Source: a virus
Taxonomy: Duplodnaviria > Heunggongvirae > Uroviricota > Caudoviricetes
Strand: one strand, 5' to 3'
IMG/VR virus record: IMGVR_UViG_2698536620_000007
DNA: 43,864 nucleotides
The position numbers were made by a program, and so were the translations under genes. Each line of letters starts with the position of its first letter. Position 1 is the first letter of the stretch. Positions 22,338-36,968 of the stretch are shown here, in pieces. The notes beneath the pieces were generated by a model, which had not been told where the DNA came from, searched no databases, and worked only from the letters and a program-made list of their open reading frames with translations.

Positions 22338-22616
22338 ATGACAACCATTTTTATTAAACCTGCGCCGGGATGCCTGATCCGCGATCCCGACACGATGACT
22401 CCGCTCTCTCAGGACGGGGAAGAGAAACCCTTCACTCCGTTCTGGTGCCGCCGTCTTAATGATGGCGACGTCATTGTGGTGGATAAAACGGCGGAGCCTG
22501 CCCCGGCTGCCACAACTGCTAATACCGGCGCGGCGGCAAAACCAGCGGGAGCGGTAGCAGAAAAAACTGCGGCGGTGGCTGAAAAAACCGCAGCATCAGA
22601 TAAGGGGACGTCCTGA
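22338..22616 (+). CDS. Mu gp38-like protein
   Basis: 92 aa with an internal AVAEKTAAVAEKTAA repeat, before the sheath gene. Confidence 0.5.
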   Translation: MTTIFIKPAPGCLIRDPDTMTPLSQDGEEKPFTPFWCRRLNDGDVIVVDKTAEPAPAATTANTGAAAKPAGAVAEKTAAVAEKTAASDKGTS

Positions 22617-24118
22617 TGATTAACTTTGATTATATCGGCGATAACAATCGCATTCCGCTGGTACAGATTGAAATCAATAATTCAATGGCCGTGACCGGCA
22701 CTCCACCACAGCGTCAGGCGGTACTGTTGTTTGGTCAGGCTGCAATGAAAGACACTACCATTCAGGGGCGCGGTCAGCTTGATGTACCAGTACGTATTAC
22801 CCGAGCTTCACAAGCAAGAGAACTCTGGGGGCGAGGTTCCATGATTGCACTGATGGTAGAGGAATTTATCGCCATTAACCCTGACACAGAGTTATATGCC
22901 ATTGCACAGGGGGCTGGAACAGGTCAGTCCAGGGCATGCGTGATGAATATCATTGGAACAGCATTGGCAGACGGGGTGTTAAGTGTTTACATCGGCGGTC
23001 GCCGTTACCTCCTGCCCGTCAGTAAGGGGAAAAAAGGTAAAGAGCTTGTGGAAGAGCTGGCTAAGGTCATTAACGCTGACACTGATGCGCCATTCACTGC
23101 TATCGCAGCTGAAGTCAGTGGTGATAATGCTGAAGGACTTAAAGGCAGCATGGGGGTTAACGCCCGCTTTATCGGTGAATGCTCAGCTCATGATTTACGG
23201 GTGAACTATTATGACGGTGAAACTACACCGGCCGGTCTTACGCTGGAGCTCGTCGCGCCAACACAGAAGGCAACAAACCCCGATATCACCCGTAGCGTCT
23301 CAGGGATGGGGAATCGTCAGTACAACTACATCGTCATGCCCTATAAGGATGCGGCAAATCTCAAAATTCTGGCGGATGAACTGCTGAAACGCTGGGGACC
23401 GGTAAAAATGTCGGACGGTATGGTCTGGATGGCGCATACCGGCACCTTCGGTACGGCAACCAGTTTTGGTGAATCCCGTAATGACTTCCTGTTTACCTGC
23501 ACTTCTATTCCTAAAGCACCAGAGCCGGATTATGTCTGGGCTGCCTCCATTTGTGCGGTCTGTGCGCCCTCCCTGTCAACGGATCCGGCCCGACCATTAC
23601 AGACACTGGCGCTGCCTGCCCGTATGGCACCTGAAGCACCGGATCGTCTGACGCGGGAAGAGCGAAACAGCCTGCTTTATACCGGCATGTCCACGGTGAC
23701 CGTCGCGGCCGCGGATGTGGTGCAGATTGAACGTCAGGTGACGATGTACCGTCAGAATGCATACGGCGAAATCGATCCCAGCTATCTGGATGTGGAAACC
23801 ATCTACACCCTGTCATATCTGCGTTATTCCCTGCGCACCTTTATCACGCAGCGTTTTCCGCGCCATAAACTGGCTGATGACGGGACGCCCGTTCGTGCCG
23901 GTCAGAATATCGTGACACCGGAGATCATGAAACTTCAGTTAATTTCGCTGGGGGAAGAATGGGTGGATCTGGGACTGGTCGAAAATCTGGACACCTTTAA
24001 AAAGAATCTGCTCGTGGAGCGCAACACAAAAGACCGTAACCGTCTGGATGTGATGTGTACACCGGATCTGGTTAACCAGTTCCGCTTCATGGCCGCGCAG
24101 ATCCGTTTCATTTTGTGA
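22616..24118 (+). CDS. Contractile tail sheath protein (Mu L-like)
   Basis: 500 aa, followed by the tube gene. Confidence 0.85.
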   Translation: MINFDYIGDNNRIPLVQIEINNSMAVTGTPPQRQAVLLFGQAAMKDTTIQGRGQLDVPVRITRASQARELWGRGSMIALMVEEFIAINPDTELYAIAQGAGTGQSRACVMNIIGTALADGVLSVYIGGRRYLLPVSKGKKGKELVEELAKVINADTDAPFTAIAAEVSGDNAEGLKGSMGVNARFIGECSAHDLRVNYYDGETTPAGLTLELVAPTQKATNPDITRSVSGMGNRQYNYIVMPYKDAANLKILADELLKRWGPVKMSDGMVWMAHTGTFGTATSFGESRNDFLFTCTSIPKAPEPDYVWAASICAVCAPSLSTDPARPLQTLALPARMAPEAPDRLTREERNSLLYTGMSTVTVAAADVVQIERQVTMYRQNAYGEIDPSYLDVETIYTLSYLRYSLRTFITQRFPRHKLADDGTPVRAGQNIVTPEIMKLQLISLGEEWVDLGLVENLDTFKKNLLVERNTKDRNRLDVMCTPDLVNQFRFMAAQIRFIL

Positions 24119-24126
24119 GGTAAGGC

Positions 24127-24492
24127 ATGAGCGGAAAACAGTATCAGGGCACGGCCACCATCCGTGTGAACGGGCAGGAGTACGACACCCTTGAGGGGGC
24201 CACGTTCTCCCCGTCCGGCTTTGAGCGTGAAGTGGTGAAAGGCGCGAAAGTTTACGGCTATCGCGAGAAACCCCGTGAGGCGACGCTGGACTGTAAATTC
24301 CCGGCGGGCGGAGAAGGTTCACCGGCTGCCGATGAAATCAACACCTGGACTGCGGTCACGATTGAGTTCGTGGCCGATACCGGTGAAGTCCACATGATGA
24401 CGAAGGCCTGGAGCAGTGAACCGGCCTCGCTTGACGGTGGTGGTGATATCTCCGCGAAGTTCGCCAGCGCCACCAGTACCCGTGTCCAGTAA
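24127..24492 (+). CDS. Tail tube protein (Mu M-like)
   Basis: 121 aa after the sheath. Confidence 0.8.
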   Translation: MSGKQYQGTATIRVNGQEYDTLEGATFSPSGFEREVVKGAKVYGYREKPREATLDCKFPAGGEGSPAADEINTWTAVTIEFVADTGEVHMMTKAWSSEPASLDGGGDISAKFASATSTRVQ

Positions 24493-24506: not shown

Positions 24507-24983
24507 ATGAGCACACGTAAGAAAAAAACGGCGGTTTCTGACGAGGCCGTGATGGAGGCTATCCGGGATGCACTTGAAGACGGCGATCCCCGCACCGCCG
24601 GGCTGGCTGAACAACTGGCGAACGGCTATGTGGATCTGCTCGACGGTCTGCCGTTCGGGGAATCCCGTGAATACCGCGTCACCTTCCGCGAACTGACGGC
24701 AAAAGACAGCATTGATGCGGAGAGCGAGGCCGAGCGTCTTATGGAAACCCGAAACGGTCCGGTTCTTGTGGCCTCACCGGCACTGCGCGGCATTGCGCTG
24801 CTGCGCCGTCAGATTGCCGCTGTCGGCCAGATTGAGGGGCCATTGTCTCCGCGTCAGATAGGACAGCTCAGCGAGCGCGATCTCTCCCGACTGATGGCGG
24901 CAGTAAGCCTGCTTGATTCCGCGATGGCCGGAAAGCTGGTCGCTGAACGGGGGCGACCAGATGCAGTGCCGGGATCAGATTGA
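24507..24983 (+). CDS. Tail assembly chaperone (Mu gp41-like)
   Basis: 158 aa between the tube and tape-measure genes; an overlapping +1-frame ORF (24907-25107) runs downstream. Confidence 0.55.
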   Translation: MSTRKKKTAVSDEAVMEAIRDALEDGDPRTAGLAEQLANGYVDLLDGLPFGESREYRVTFRELTAKDSIDAESEAERLMETRNGPVLVASPALRGIALLRRQIAAVGQIEGPLSPRQIGQLSERDLSRLMAAVSLLDSAMAGKLVAERGRPDAVPGSD

Positions 24984-25110
24984 AGAAGCCGCAATTGTGC
25001 TGGGGATGGTGACAAAAAGCGGCCCGGAGTGGGCGCTTAACCTCCCCTTATCGCAGCTTTACCGGCACTGCCGACAGACCGAAAAAATTCTCAGAACGAA
25101 GCAGTAACCC

Positions 25111-27168
25111 ATGGCAAAAAACCTGAAAGCCTCCCTGATTGTCGATTTACTCGGCAATATTTCTGCCAAATCCCGCCAGTGGTCACAGGAGCTGGGGGCA
25201 TTCTCCCGTTCCGGCAGGACGGGGCTGGGTGGTCTTGGAAATGCAGCACGTCGTGCCGGTCAGGAGACAGAACTTGTCGGCTCCCGTATGCAGCGAACGC
25301 TTGCCGGTGTTCGTGGCAGTATCCGCACGGTGACGTCAGATTTTGACCGCCTTCAGGGCAGCATTACCGGCACCATCGGGCGGATAAGCAACCTTTACGG
25401 GATGCTGGCGGGAGGGGCTGCGGTCTACGGGTTTAATAAAGCCTTTATCCGCCCGGCCGCAGAGATGGAGAACTATATTCTGCGTCTCAACGCCATTAAT
25501 CATGGCGATACGGCAAAAACGGAAGCAGTGAAAGCCTGGGCGGTACAGAACGCCAAAGACACCACCTGGGGGCTGGCGGGGGTTATGCAGGAATACGCCT
25601 CCAGTCGCGGGTTCGGTATGAGTGACAGGGAAGCCCGTCGCTTTATTACCATGCTTCAGGATCAGGGCGGCTATCACGGCTGGTCACTGTCAGATGCACA
25701 GGGTGCGTCCCTGCAACTCAAACAGATGTTTGCCCGCCAGAGTATCCAGGCAGCGGACGCCAATATTCTGACCGGATACGGGATTAACGTTTACCAGTTG
25801 CTGGCCGATAAGCTGGGTGTAAACCAGAAGATCATCCGTGAGAAAGGCGAGAAAGGAAAACTGGGACCGGACAGCATTCGCCTGTTATTTCAGGTGATGG
25901 CCGAACAGGCAAAAGGTGCCCAGAAAAACGCCATGAATTCCTGGACGGGAATGACGTCCATGATGGGCGATGTCTGGGACGGATTTGCCCGCGAGGTGAT
26001 GGCAAAGGGACCGTTTGACAGCCTGAAAAAGAGCCTGAAAGGCTTTCTGGATTATGCTGATGCGGCACAGAAAAGCGGCTTACAGGATAAGCTGGCCACA
26101 CAGACGGCCTCAGCCCTGAATCAGGGATTTGAGTATGCCAGAGACGCTGCGACCGGCTTTTACCGGGTCATTCAGAAAGTCAGGGAAACGCTTCAGGCAC
26201 TGCGCGACGCCGGTTATGGCGATGCGCTGGATCGCATTGGTCAGGGTGCGCAGACCGCCGCAAAGTACCTGATGTATATGTATCTCGCCTCCCGTGCGCT
26301 GAAGGTGCTCAGGTTTGCGGGGACGGGGGCATTACGTCTCGGCGCAACCCCCTTACGCTATGGCATGGCGATGACCTCCGTGCTGACGTCGCCCTTCCGC
26401 AAACCGCAGACCACTGTACCGGGAACGCAGCCCGGACGCGCTGGCCGGTTCCTGAATTTCCTTACCGGGGTAAATCCGGCTGCCGTTCAGCCCGTGCTGG
26501 TCACCAATTGGCCTGCGGGTGGCCTGGCCTCAGGTGGCGGGGATGTGGTGGTCAGCGGTGACGGCAAAACCGTGCGCGGCCGTAAAAAACGCGGCCCCGG
26601 ACGTGGACGGGGTGTCACGACCGTCGTGACTGCCGGTGAGCAACTGGCGGAGAGTGCCGGTAAACAGGGCTTCTTCGGTCGTATGATGAGCCGTGCCGGT
26701 GGTCTGCTAACGGCGGCCGGAAACCGCATGGGGCTGGGGCGTTTTGCCGGGCTGTTCCGTGGTGCCGGTCGGCTGGGTGGTGGTGCCCTGTGGGCCGGTG
26801 CCATGGCGGCTCCTGTACTGCTGGACAGCAGCGCCAGTGCAGCCGATAAAGCCGGTGCCGTGGGTTCCCTTGCCGGAAGTATCGCCGGTGGCGCGCTGGG
26901 GGCGGCTGCCGGTCCGGTCGGGGTTGCCATTGGTTCCACGGTGGGCAGCTATCTCGGTGATTATCTGGGGGGCTGGCTGACGCAGGCCTGGCAGAAACTG
27001 CGTGGCGGCAGTGACGAAAACGGCGGACAGGCCACCGCGAAAACCGCCGCACGGGTGGAGCTTGTTGCCCCTGAAGGCTGGCGGGCGCGCAGTATTGATG
27101 TGGATGATACCGCACAGCATGGCCTGGATGTGAACGTCTGGAACGGAGGGAACTATGGCCTCTACTGA
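25111..27168 (+). CDS. Tail tape measure protein
   Basis: 685 aa, Gly/Ala-rich C-terminal repeats, position after the chaperone. Confidence 0.8.
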   Translation: MAKNLKASLIVDLLGNISAKSRQWSQELGAFSRSGRTGLGGLGNAARRAGQETELVGSRMQRTLAGVRGSIRTVTSDFDRLQGSITGTIGRISNLYGMLAGGAAVYGFNKAFIRPAAEMENYILRLNAINHGDTAKTEAVKAWAVQNAKDTTWGLAGVMQEYASSRGFGMSDREARRFITMLQDQGGYHGWSLSDAQGASLQLKQMFARQSIQAADANILTGYGINVYQLLADKLGVNQKIIREKGEKGKLGPDSIRLLFQVMAEQAKGAQKNAMNSWTGMTSMMGDVWDGFAREVMAKGPFDSLKKSLKGFLDYADAAQKSGLQDKLATQTASALNQGFEYARDAATGFYRVIQKVRETLQALRDAGYGDALDRIGQGAQTAAKYLMYMYLASRALKVLRFAGTGALRLGATPLRYGMAMTSVLTSPFRKPQTTVPGTQPGRAGRFLNFLTGVNPAAVQPVLVTNWPAGGLASGGGDVVVSGDGKTVRGRKKRGPGRGRGVTTVVTAGEQLAESAGKQGFFGRMMSRAGGLLTAAGNRMGLGRFAGLFRGAGRLGGGALWAGAMAAPVLLDSSASAADKAGAVGSLAGSIAGGALGAAAGPVGVAIGSTVGSYLGDYLGGWLTQAWQKLRGGSDENGGQATAKTAARVELVAPEGWRARSIDVDDTAQHGLDVNVWNGGNYGLY

Positions 27169-34913: not shown

Positions 34914-36968
34914 ATGTCAGACTCCAAGTGGAAAATGCTCTCCGCCATGCCCGGAGAGTTTTCAGTCAAGGTTGCCGGTGGCACGGTGGCATTTATTGAA
35001 AGCCCTTTCCGCCCTTCGGGTAATAAAGGGGGGATCACCTTCGCAGACTGCGTGATCCGCTTCAGCACGAAAGAGCCATTATGGGTAATGCCGGTATCCG
35101 GTAATCCCAGTGCAGAAATCACCAGTTCAGGCGTGACTGGCATCATTCCAATCACATCTGACGTGGCCGGAACGCTCACGCCCTCCGACTGGAATGCACC
35201 GGATAACGCCGGGCCTTCCGGTAGCACGAATGGCAGCAGTTCAGAGCCGGAATATTACTTTGTTGTCATTCTCGCGGGTCAGTCAAATGGCATGGCCTAC
35301 GGCGAGGGGCTGCCGTTACCGGATTCGTTTGACCGCCCGGACCCACGCATTAAGCAACTGGCACGCCGCAGTACGGTAACGCCCAACGGTACGTCGTGTA
35401 CATACAACGACATCATTCCGGCAGACCACTGCCTGCATGATGTTCAGGATATGAGCGGGATAAACCACCCGAAAGCTGATCTGGCAAAAGGCCAGTACGG
35501 GACTGTCGGTCAGGGGTTGCATATTGCCAAAAAACTGCTTCCCTATATCCCACAGAATGCCGGGATACTTCTGGTGCCCTGTTGTCGTGGCGGGTCAGCA
35601 TTCACCACTGGAGCCGACGGCTCATTCAGTGAGGCCAGCGGTGCTTCCGCTGATTCTTCACGCTGGGGGGCCGGTAAACCTCTGTATCAGGACCTGGTAA
35701 GCCGCACCAAAGTCGCGCTGGCGAAAAACCCGAAAAACAAACTTCTGGCTGTGGTCTGGATGCAGGGAGAGGCAGACCTTGCCTCAGGAAGCCAGCAGCA
35801 TAATAGTTTATTCACGGCCATGGTTCAGCAGTTCAGAACTGACCTGGCTCCGCTTGCTGCGCAGTGCGTGAGTGGAAATGCCACCACGGTGCCGTGGATT
35901 TGCGGTGATACCACGTATTACTGGAAAAACGCTGGCACCGATAAATATGAGGCAGTATACGGTGGCTACAAAGGCAAGGAAGCACAGAAAATTTTCTTTG
36001 TACCGTTCCTGACGGATGAGAATGGACAGAGCACGCCAACGAATGCTCCGGCGGAAGACCCGGATATTGTGGCTGTCGGGTATTACGGTGCAGCATCCCG
36101 AACCCAGGGCAGTTTTGTTTCGACACAGCGTGACAGCCATTTCAGCTCATGGGCACGCAGGGGCGTCATTTCAGACCGTCTGGCCTCAGCTATTATGCTC
36201 CATGCAGGGCGCACGGCTGAACTGATGCGTGGGCAGACCGTGACACCACCGGATGAGAAGCCGTCACCTGATACACCATCAAAACCGTCCACGCCACCCG
36301 CAGACACCACGACGATGAGTACGCTATTTGCTTACCGGGCATCTGAGTCTGAAGGACGGTTGACACCACAGGGTTGGGCTGCCGGAGGTGGCAAGGCTCA
36401 AATCGTGGATGATGCCGGAGCCAGCGGGGGTAAGGCAATGAAACTGACCAAGGAAACAGGAAGAGCCCCCTGGTACCTTGAGCATGATGCTGGTAATGGT
36501 GCGGACCTGCTGGGTAAAGGTGGTCTTGTCAGTTGTCGTTTTAAACTCGATGGCGCGCTTACGGCTAATCAGTACGCACTGGCGCTGTACTGGCCGGTTT
36601 CTGCCCTGCCGCAAGGGGTTACTCTGGAAGGAAATGCCGGTCATAACCTGCTGGCATCGTTCTACGTACAGAGCGATGCCACAGACCTTAACGTGATGTA
36701 TCACAAAGGAAACACGGCGCAGAACACGAAGCTGGGGTCATTCGGCGCATTTAATAACGAATGGCATACGCTGGGCTTCCGTTTTGCCGGTAACAACAGT
36801 ATTGAGGTGACGCCGGTCATTGATGGTAAGGACGGGACACCATTCATGCTGTCGCAGTCTCCGGTCGGCACGTTTACGGCAGACAAGTTGCGCGTGACCG
36901 ATATCACTAAAAATGCGACTTACCCGGTACTGATTGACAGTATCGTGGTGGAAGTGAATAACGCGTAA
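34914..36968 (+). CDS. SGNH/sialate-O-acetylesterase-like carbohydrate esterase with a C-terminal lectin-like domain (cargo)
   Basis: 684 aa; VVILAGQSNGMAYGE (GQSN block) and VVWMQGEAD block typical of the DUF303/sialate O-acetylesterase family; Pro/Thr/Ser-rich linker (PPDEKPSPDTPSKPSTPPADTTT) before a C-terminal beta-rich domain. Confidence 0.55.
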   Translation: MSDSKWKMLSAMPGEFSVKVAGGTVAFIESPFRPSGNKGGITFADCVIRFSTKEPLWVMPVSGNPSAEITSSGVTGIIPITSDVAGTLTPSDWNAPDNAGPSGSTNGSSSEPEYYFVVILAGQSNGMAYGEGLPLPDSFDRPDPRIKQLARRSTVTPNGTSCTYNDIIPADHCLHDVQDMSGINHPKADLAKGQYGTVGQGLHIAKKLLPYIPQNAGILLVPCCRGGSAFTTGADGSFSEASGASADSSRWGAGKPLYQDLVSRTKVALAKNPKNKLLAVVWMQGEADLASGSQQHNSLFTAMVQQFRTDLAPLAAQCVSGNATTVPWICGDTTYYWKNAGTDKYEAVYGGYKGKEAQKIFFVPFLTDENGQSTPTNAPAEDPDIVAVGYYGAASRTQGSFVSTQRDSHFSSWARRGVISDRLASAIMLHAGRTAELMRGQTVTPPDEKPSPDTPSKPSTPPADTTTMSTLFAYRASESEGRLTPQGWAAGGGKAQIVDDAGASGGKAMKLTKETGRAPWYLEHDAGNGADLLGKGGLVSCRFKLDGALTANQYALALYWPVSALPQGVTLEGNAGHNLLASFYVQSDATDLNVMYHKGNTAQNTKLGSFGAFNNEWHTLGFRFAGNNSIEVTPVIDGKDGTPFMLSQSPVGTFTADKLRVTDITKNATYPVLIDSIVVEVNNA

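Follow-up and report, generated by a model that had tools for sequence, protein, structure and literature searches.

The tail assembly chaperone gene of phage Mu is an established natural case of −2 ribosomal frameshifting, with about 2.2% shifting in vivo (PMC3498833; PMC5009743), and the shift has been known since Xu, Hendrix & Duda 2004, which PMC5009743 cites. In the GenBank record of Mu, the joined coding sequence Mu_56 carries the note 'verified -2 translational frameshift in PMID 15469818; tail assembly chaperone frameshift product'. A recent preprint (bioRxiv 10.1101/2025.10.02.679949) reports that in a purified system 14% shifting is obtained with no more than a 10-mer of the Mu site. 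For these facts on the Mu frameshift we rely on the GenBank note, on identity with a Swiss-Prot entry and on citing papers. The model for the paired products G and GT of phage lambda, as outlined in PMC5009743, has the tape measure protein coated by a short, abundant form, and the tube protein tethered by a long, rare form through its extension. In a 2025 cryo-EM study of Mu, gp41 is not resolved in the virion.

We compared with these systems a locus in a viral DNA stretch of 43,864 nucleotides (IMG/VR record IMGVR_UViG_2698536620_000007; hereafter the window, to which all coordinates refer, with every feature on its plus strand). The window is a complete Mu-like prophage of Escherichia coli that encodes the MuA transposase, MuB, a Mu-type portal, MuF and the gpT major head protein. 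Its chaperone region is 100% identical to the chromosomes of E. coli JE86-ST05 and 600029; about 230 of 5,426 complete E. coli genomes, many O157:H7 strains among them, contain it at an identity of at least 80%. The contractile tail module comprises a tail sheath gene (22616–24118; Pfam Phage_sheath_1 and Phage_sheath_1C), a tail tube protein gene (24127–24492; Pfam Tail_tube PF10618, E = 3.4e-30), the tail assembly chaperone gene (24507–24983) and, as the downstream partner of the chaperone pair, a tape measure protein gene (25111–27168; Pfam TMP_3, E = 2.1e-17; 'tape measure protein' in RefSeq). This order of sheath, tube, chaperone and tape measure, in the contractile tail module of a Mu-like genome, is the position of the Mu-type cassette, and the tube protein, encoded directly 5' of the chaperone, is the presumed target of the chaperone's extension domain. 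An apparent gap of 127 nt separates the chaperone from the tape measure gene, while neighbouring tail genes are separated by 8 to 14 nt or share 14 to 17 nt. RefSeq annotates a 158-aa 'phage tail assembly protein' (WP_000107489.1) and the tape measure, and leaves the 127 nt between them blank.

The chaperone gene reads in frame 0 to a TGA at 24981–24983 and encodes 158 aa (16.98 kDa). The protein matches Pfam Gp41_Mu (PF23746; E = 3.3e-32, 111 bits against a cut-off of 27) and PHROG 508, a tail assembly chaperone family (E = 5e-45), and is 49.6% identical to Mu gp41; a weak match to Pfam Phage_TAC_7, 'E, or 41 or 14' (E = 5.5e-05), falls below the curated cut-off. Judged by these matches, the 158-aa chaperone is the orthologue of Mu gp41, and it would be the product of those ribosomes that do not shift.

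An earlier reading of the letters alone, here called the sequence-only reading, had described a +1 frame open from 24907 to 25107, overlapping the last 25 chaperone codons and closing just before the tape measure start, and had proposed that a programmed frameshift near a G-rich run extends the chaperone into it. The coordinates hold. Relative to the chaperone, the +1 frame is stop-free for 66 codons (24907–25104) between a TAA at 24904–24906 and a TAA at 25105–25107; the overlap amounts to 77 nt, and 3 nt lie between its stop and the tape measure ATG at 25111. The motifs it named, CGGAAAG (24929–24935), the G-rich ACGGGGGCGACC (24947–24958) and an ATG (24961–24963), also lie where it had placed them. 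The −1 frame is closed, being open for 21 codons only (24947–25009). The open +1 frame is weak evidence by itself, because 27% of the +1-frame codons within the prophage genes fall in stop-free stretches of at least 66 codons. The octamer GGGGGCGA occurs three times in the window against 2.16 expected.

Comparison with Mu gives the G-rich run its meaning. The run of five Gs (24949–24953) belongs to the slippery site CGG GGG CGA (24948–24956), and the 12 nt GAA CGG GGG CGA (24945–24956; GAACGGGGGCGA) are identical to those of Mu (1497–1508 of the Mu locus, L001), in the same phase. The contexts read caa GAA CGG GGG CGA gtg in Mu and gct GAA CGG GGG CGA cca in the window, so that 12 identical nucleotides stand within genes that have otherwise half diverged. 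The proposal of a frameshift at this run is thereby borne out in its essentials: the comparison with annotated sites of Mu-like phages that it had suggested as a check finds the window's site matching, phase included, the site of Mu_56, where the −2 shift is recorded as verified. The direction, +1 or equivalently −2, had been thought atypical; going by the GenBank note on Mu and by Xu, Hendrix & Duda 2004, it is the norm of this family.

We gathered related loci: 9 from phages and prophages and, with an alignment of four sequences as query, 27 from a collection with one genome per species, 36 together, and a further 80 from IMG/VR. The site (GGGGGCGA, read as CGG GGG CGA) is present in phase in 27 of the first 36. 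The remainder comprise three metagenome-assembled genomes of Desulfobacterota with CGG GGG CGC, one locus (Citrobacter braakii) with AAG GGG CGA, two in which a four-G run fuses both frames, one with a run of seven Gs and two broken at contig ends. Of the 80 contigs from viruses, 71 carry CGG GGG CGA and 8 carry AAG GGG CGA, and one is apparently fused. Hosts of loci that combine the in-phase site with a +1-frame extension span Enterobacterales, Pasteurellaceae, Vibrio, Shewanella, Alteromonadaceae and Desulfobacterota, and both are kept at chaperone identities down to 34%. Across the tabulated loci, the +1 frame that leaves the site ends between −17 and +14 nt relative to the tape measure start, and the −1 frame closes early. 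The conservation of site and extension is far beyond chance.

Codon choice at the site is equally constrained. We counted codons in 31 loci with checked phase, taking the same codons elsewhere in the same genes as reference. The slip codon is GGG in all 31 loci, a codon that accounts for 19% of glycine codons elsewhere; the preceding arginine codon is CGG or AGG in 30 of 30 (14.8% of arginine codons elsewhere); and the following codon is CGA in 28 of 31 (5.9% of arginine codons elsewhere). Conservation of CGA is confounded, in that the overlapping +1 frame uses its GA for Asp or Glu. By way of the rare arginine codons, GG stands directly before the slip codon in 30 of the 31 loci. This GG is needed for re-pairing after a −2 slip and is dispensable for a +1 slip, and its retention fits the −2 direction.

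Selective constraint changes frame at the same point. We compared the window with a relative from E. coli (83–90% identical), with Citrobacter and with Mu. In the +1 frame of the extension, the dN/dS values were 0.14, 0.11, 0.29 and 0.25; the other two phases gave values around or above 1. On the 5' side of the site, frame 0 had 0.13 and the +1 phase about 1.8. This reversal between the 5' and 3' sides indicates that the coding frame changes at the G-run. The +1 frame that had been pointed out as a whole thus divides in two: the part 3' of the site is coding, and the open stretch 24907–24947, in which dN/dS in that phase is about 1.8, is not coding and is incidental. In several other loci the +1 frame opens just 2 to 6 codons 5' of the site. 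A chance open reading frame is ruled out by the conservation in related loci together with dN/dS.

The extension segment runs from a GGC to the TAA (24952–25107) and encodes GDQMQCRDQIEEAAIVLGMVTKSGPEWALNLPLSQLYRHCRQTEKILRTKQ, which would form the T-like domain of a fusion. By tblastn it is homologous to the same frame in Mu, D108 and SfMu (E = 3e-13, with 53.2% identity across 47 aa), and it matches PHROG 12783, a family of 'unknown function' (E = 3.7e-38). Pfam gave no match for the extension, and NCBIfam none for either the chaperone or the extension. The predicted frameshift product, join(24507..24953, 24952..25107), spans 24507–25107 and would have 200 aa (21.95 kDa) with the junction ...LVAERGGDQMQCR... 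The same −2 slip modelled on the Mu site reproduces, residue for residue, Swiss-Prot P0DJY4 ('Probable tail assembly protein FS-gp41') and GenBank UIW09302.1; for a +1 version of the Mu fusion we found no record. Neither the window's −2 fusion nor its +1 variant occurs in a protein collection of about 15 billion entries. A search with the fusion returned unfused chaperones only, plus a few in-frame fusions due to a missing G. Such natural in-frame fusions with four Gs read ...ERGEW..., a +1-type junction. A sequence search of the PDB gave no match. A single-sequence AlphaFold2 model of the fusion (mean pLDDT 54, with residues 1–109 almost all below 50) was too poor to use; the C-terminal 90 residues were predicted to be helical at a pLDDT of about 70, which we take as a hint only.

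We conclude that the extension frame is most probably expressed by a programmed −2 ribosomal frameshift of the Mu type within the chaperone gene of this Mu-like prophage of E. coli, and put the probability of this reading, argued from sequence comparison, at roughly 0.88. It is carried by the orthology of both parts to Mu, the identity and conservation of the site, and the switch of selective constraint at the site. Most ribosomes would read 24507–24983 in frame 0 and produce the 158-aa gp41-like chaperone. We infer that in this prophage, too, the shift occurs, in the −2 direction and at an efficiency that makes it a minority event: some ribosomes would pause with peptidyl-tRNA-Gly on GGG (24951–24953) and the rare CGA, presumably a slow codon, in the A site. 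The tRNA-Gly would then move two nucleotides back and re-pair on the overlapping GGG (24949–24951), and decoding would restart at GGC (24952–24954) to give a 200-aa fusion, ...AERGGDQMQCR...TKQ, that ends at the TAA at 25105–25107. We propose slippage in the P site on C GGG GGC GA on the strength of the sequence, of the codon statistics and of the precedent in Mu. By analogy with lambda gpG and gpGT, the short form may coat the tape measure protein and the rare form with the extension may recruit the tail tube protein, a fixed ratio of the two serving tail assembly.

A rare codon in the A site is the classic trigger of +1 P-site slippage, as in prfB and Ty1, and the same site could be read in that way. 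Peptidyl-tRNA-Gly on GGG (24951–24953) would move forward to GGC (24952–24954) with CGA in the A site, giving ...AERGDQMQCR... in a protein of 199 aa; the outgoing frame is identical to that of a −2 slip, and the product is nearly the same. The nearest sister clade, from Salmonella and Citrobacter (63–78% identity), has four Gs in AAG GGG CGA and its extension is under selection (pN/pS 0.11–0.24), so that perfect −2 re-pairing is not indispensable; a clade that keeps the extension without a perfect −2 landing codon speaks for a +1 slip, as does the junction of the natural four-G fusions. Against it, the shift on record for Mu, which has the identical 12-nt site, is −2, and Swiss-Prot P0DJY4 contains the extra Gly; moreover, the GG before the slip codon can be understood only if the tRNA moves backward. 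We consider a +1 shift in the window improbable.

We found no sign of a downstream stimulator in the form of a stable or conserved hairpin or pseudoknot 5–9 nt 3' of the site. The 121 nt around and 3' of the site fold like their shuffles (z-score of the minimum free energy −0.05 in the window, −0.23 in Mu), and Rfam gave no match at E ≤ 1. This absence of a stimulatory structure agrees with the 14% shifting obtained with the Mu 10-mer alone, and is consistent with a short, autonomous site. The CGGAAAG motif (24929–24935), which codes for Gly-Lys of the chaperone and is missing in Mu, had been pointed out near the overlap, and finds no support in either of two roles. It is rejected as a −1 slippery heptamer, not being an in-phase X XXY YYZ and with a −1 shift there meeting a stop at 24944, and as a Shine–Dalgarno (SD)-like stimulator, with anti-SD pairing of −4.4 kcal/mol (empirical P = 0.26).

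Upstream elements of the latter kind do occur in the wider family. Many distant relatives have an SD-like element (GGAG, GAGG, GGAGG or AGGTG) 8–13 nt 5' of the run, with an empirical P below 0.1 in 9 of 19 lineage representatives and a Fisher's combined P of 3e-9, to be read with the provisos that the lineages are non-independent and that a conserved Glu codon contributes. In relatives from Brenneria and Vibrio the element reads GGAGG. The Mu and E. coli group, the window included, is without such an element, and the Salmonella and Citrobacter clade has AGGTGA only 5 nt 5' of its four-G site.

The sequence-only reading had offered an alternative, a separate small gene that starts at ATG 24961. 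Such a gene would yield an unfused 48-aa protein, with the G-run acting as its Shine–Dalgarno sequence. The ATG (24961–24963) is the fifth codon of the extension, and the G-run, 7 nt ahead of it, has an anti-SD pairing energy of about −8.6 to −9 kcal/mol. In one genome PGAP calls the 48-aa open reading frame a hypothetical protein; 116 contigs have the 48-aa sequence on deposit under the label 'hypothetical protein'; and an ATG or GTG occupies this codon in about half of the lineages. The ATG itself is confined to the lineage of the window and L038. Its codon is GCG in the 83–90% identical E. coli relatives (L010, a Mu-like element into which an Stx phage has inserted, L039, L040 and L041), CTG in Mu, and one of CAG, ATA, ATC, AGG and AAG elsewhere in the family, yet purifying selection on the extension is maintained; a start codon and ribosome binding site conserved among the relatives were not found. 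The annotated starts are of three kinds: CTG for D108 gp41.5, ATG for the 48-aa form, and apparently TTG, 5' of the site, for a 60-aa form. Where the +1 frame opens a few codons before the site, as in several loci, no other start is left; moreover, Mu makes the fusion, and a Shine–Dalgarno role alone fails to explain the frozen G5 and CGA. On this comparative evidence a free 48-aa peptide from ATG 24961 cannot be the conserved mode of expression, and a separate gene in place of the fusion is very unlikely. Some independent initiation at ATG 24961 in the window's own lineage is physically plausible.

Transcriptional slippage, in which RNA polymerase would add two Gs or drop one on the G5 run and so join the frames in the mRNA, would yield the same proteins as the −2 or +1 ribosomal shifts and might draw on the four-G genomic variants seen in assemblies, but is extremely improbable, since known sites of this kind are runs of about 6–9 or more A or T, next to which five Gs are short and no long homopolymer is present, and since a run fixed at five Gs in 27 of 36 and 71 of 80 loci, followed by a conserved rare codon, points to decoding.

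With the −2 ribosomal frameshift as our preferred reading for the window, the relatives invite a wider and more speculative proposal. The recoding signal of this chaperone family may be evolving: a dnaX-type SD-like element in distant relatives would have been lost in the Mu and E. coli group, the four-G site of Salmonella and Citrobacter might have become a prfB-like +1 site, and the gain of an ATG in the window's lineage might add a free 48-aa T-like peptide beside the fusion. We hold this composite scenario to be unlikely as it stands; if true, it would make one orthologous gene pair a natural series of −2, +1 and re-initiation answers to a single stoichiometry problem.

The phenomenon itself has been known from Mu since 2004; what is new is an unannotated orthologue of Mu gp41/FS-gp41, and knowledge of how such chaperones work is unchanged by it. 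The main value lies in annotation, as RefSeq lacks the fusion for a prophage family that about 230 of the 5,426 complete E. coli genomes carry, and the extension either goes unrecorded, or is listed as a 'hypothetical protein' whose start is set arbitrarily, or falls into a PHROG of unknown function. The comparative series also amounts to a natural mutational map of one of the few natural −2 frameshift sites, made up of the frozen CGG GGG CGA, the three CGC variants, the four-G sister clade, the in-frame fusions and the upstream SD-like elements. The four-G clade, the in-frame fusions and the SD-like elements are modest leads.

Set beside lambda gpG/gpGT (as described in PMC5009743), the locus is predicted to be alike in having two products with a common N-terminus, encoded just 5' of the tape measure gene, with a fixed low ratio and the same presumed division of labour. 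The lambda shift is −1, by tandem slippage on X XXY YYZ (of the G GGA AAG type), whereas the window would use the +1/−2 frame, with single-tRNA slippage on a G5 run; an in-phase heptamer together with a −1 frame open to the tape measure, the lambda arrangement, does not occur here. We detected no sequence similarity to gpG/gpGT, and the Pfam families differ. With gpE/gpE+E' of P2, also a contractile-tailed phage, the locus shares a chaperone pair flanked by the genes for tube and tape measure, and the weak Phage_TAC_7 match. The P2 shift is in the −1 direction and uses another slippery sequence.

Two cellular genes of E. coli offer partial parallels. The proposed P-site slippage at a hungry A-site codon resembles prfB (+1), and the SD-like element 5' of the run in distant relatives resembles dnaX (−1), where a spacing of 8–13 nt favours backward slippage. 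Unlike both dnaX and prfB, the window has no significant SD-like element and no downstream hairpin, and its proposed shift is one of two nucleotides.

The closest system is Mu gp41/FS-gp41 (Mu_41/Mu_56; P0DJY4). The two share the Pfam chaperone family, the 12-nt site in phase, a homologous extension and the position between the tube and tape measure genes, and the extensions after the shift are of nearly the same length (50 residues in the window against 51 in Mu). They differ in that the proteins are only about 50% identical, with a 14-aa longer and unrelated N-terminus on the window's chaperone; in the fifth extension codon, which is ATG in the window's lineage and CTG in Mu; in the distance from the extension stop to the tape measure ATG, 3 nt against 14 nt in Mu; and in that the fusion with its extra Gly is on record for Mu, whereas here it is a prediction that RefSeq does not annotate. 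As far as sequence can define it, every defining feature of the Mu gp41/FS-gp41 cassette is present in this prophage.

The slippery site of the tail assembly chaperone (CGG GGG CGA, 24948-24956) takes variant forms in other relatives of the prophage. Three loci from Desulfosarcina and Desulfatiglandales MAGs (L015, L023 and L033) carry CGG GGG CGC, so that the A-site codon is CGC and not CGA. With this substitution the extension starts Gly-Gly-Ala, and the CGC variants indicate that CGA is not a strict requirement.

In the nearest sister clade (63-78% identity) the run is reduced to four Gs, in AAG GGG CGA, so that a -2 re-pairing would land on AGG. This form was found at 1630-1638 of L011, in the IMG/VR loci L067-L075 and in the genes of Salmonella, Citrobacter and Klebsiella oxytoca proteins P0065-P0091. 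Purifying selection on the extension persists in this clade (pN/pS 0.11-0.24). The GGG codon is preceded, at a distance of 5 nt, by AGGTGA, where the +1 frame also has a GTG. In place of the -2 shift, the AAG GGG CGA clade may use an internal start or a shift of the +1 type.

A different four-G run, CGG GGC GA, joins the chaperone and the extension in one frame in some assemblies (...ERGEWL..., ...DRGDQAQ...), namely L012 (Kluyvera genomosp. 3), L013 (Erwinia tracheiphila) and L101, and in proteins P0003, P0100, P0101 and P0108. These fused runs could be homopolymer sequencing errors, the products of decaying prophages (compare L012, which has an additional frameshift downstream of the fused run) or genuine fused-only variants. 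A Smithella MAG locus at a contig end (L035, 1201-1627) has a G7 run, CGG GGG GGA TGA, and an extension-like peptide (...LSLPLR) in the -1 frame. Here G GGG GGA would make a canonical -1 heptamer, and together with the -1-frame peptide this makes a switch of direction in a relative possible; the shift direction may have changed in L035, or the run may be an assembly error.

Annotation of the extension in public records is inconsistent (24984-25110 in the window; 665-811 in L038, which shares the window's lineage; protein P0115). For the genome that holds the window, RefSeq lists no extension feature; another E. coli genome is annotated with a 48-aa 'hypothetical protein' that starts at the ATG (24961), and other records give a 60-aa ORF with a start upstream of the slippery site. 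The extension ORF of phage D108, gp41.5, was assigned a CTG start, and the extension family, PHROG 12783, carries the label 'unknown function'.

Within the window, the slippery motif recurs in phase as a second copy, TGG GGG CGA (Trp-Gly-Arg), in the tail sheath gene (22826-22834, + strand). A -2 shift there would lead to a stop after four codons (GEVP*). The copy is not conserved, with CGC in an O157:H7 relative and no such motif in Mu, and it is probably fortuitous, though it might reduce translation of the sheath by a few per cent. A third GGGGGCGA copy (42729-42736, + strand) falls inside a gene on the opposite strand (41851-43566, - strand), placed beyond the prophage tail genes, that encodes a 571-aa protein with type III secretion LRR and NEL (novel E3 ubiquitin ligase, IpaH/SspH-like) domains. 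Elsewhere, a gene at 34914-36968 (+ strand) occupies the position of tail fibre or cargo genes in Mu. Its 684-aa product contains DUF6645 and a SASA carbohydrate (sialate) acetylesterase domain; given the gene's position, this protein may be a tail fibre or spike that modifies the receptor.

Folds of both the window and Mu contain a small GC-rich hairpin about 65-70 nt downstream of the slippery site (GGCCCGGAGUGGGCG, window 25019-25035; GGCCCGGAAUGGGCC, Mu locus L001 1572-1587), in a region that encodes the conserved GPEWAL motif. At that distance it is too far from the site to be a classical frameshift stimulator. Upstream, a Shine-Dalgarno-like element (GGAG, GAGG, GGAGG or AGGTG) is absent from Mu and the window at 8-13 nt before the G-run and is enriched at this spacing in non-enterobacterial and Brenneria/Serratia lineages, including L004, L005, L007, L008, L009, L018, L030, L036 and others (P < 0.1 in 9 of 19 representatives; Fisher's combined P = 3e-9, uncorrected for phylogeny). 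In these lineages, the element may be a stimulator of backward slippage like that of dnaX.
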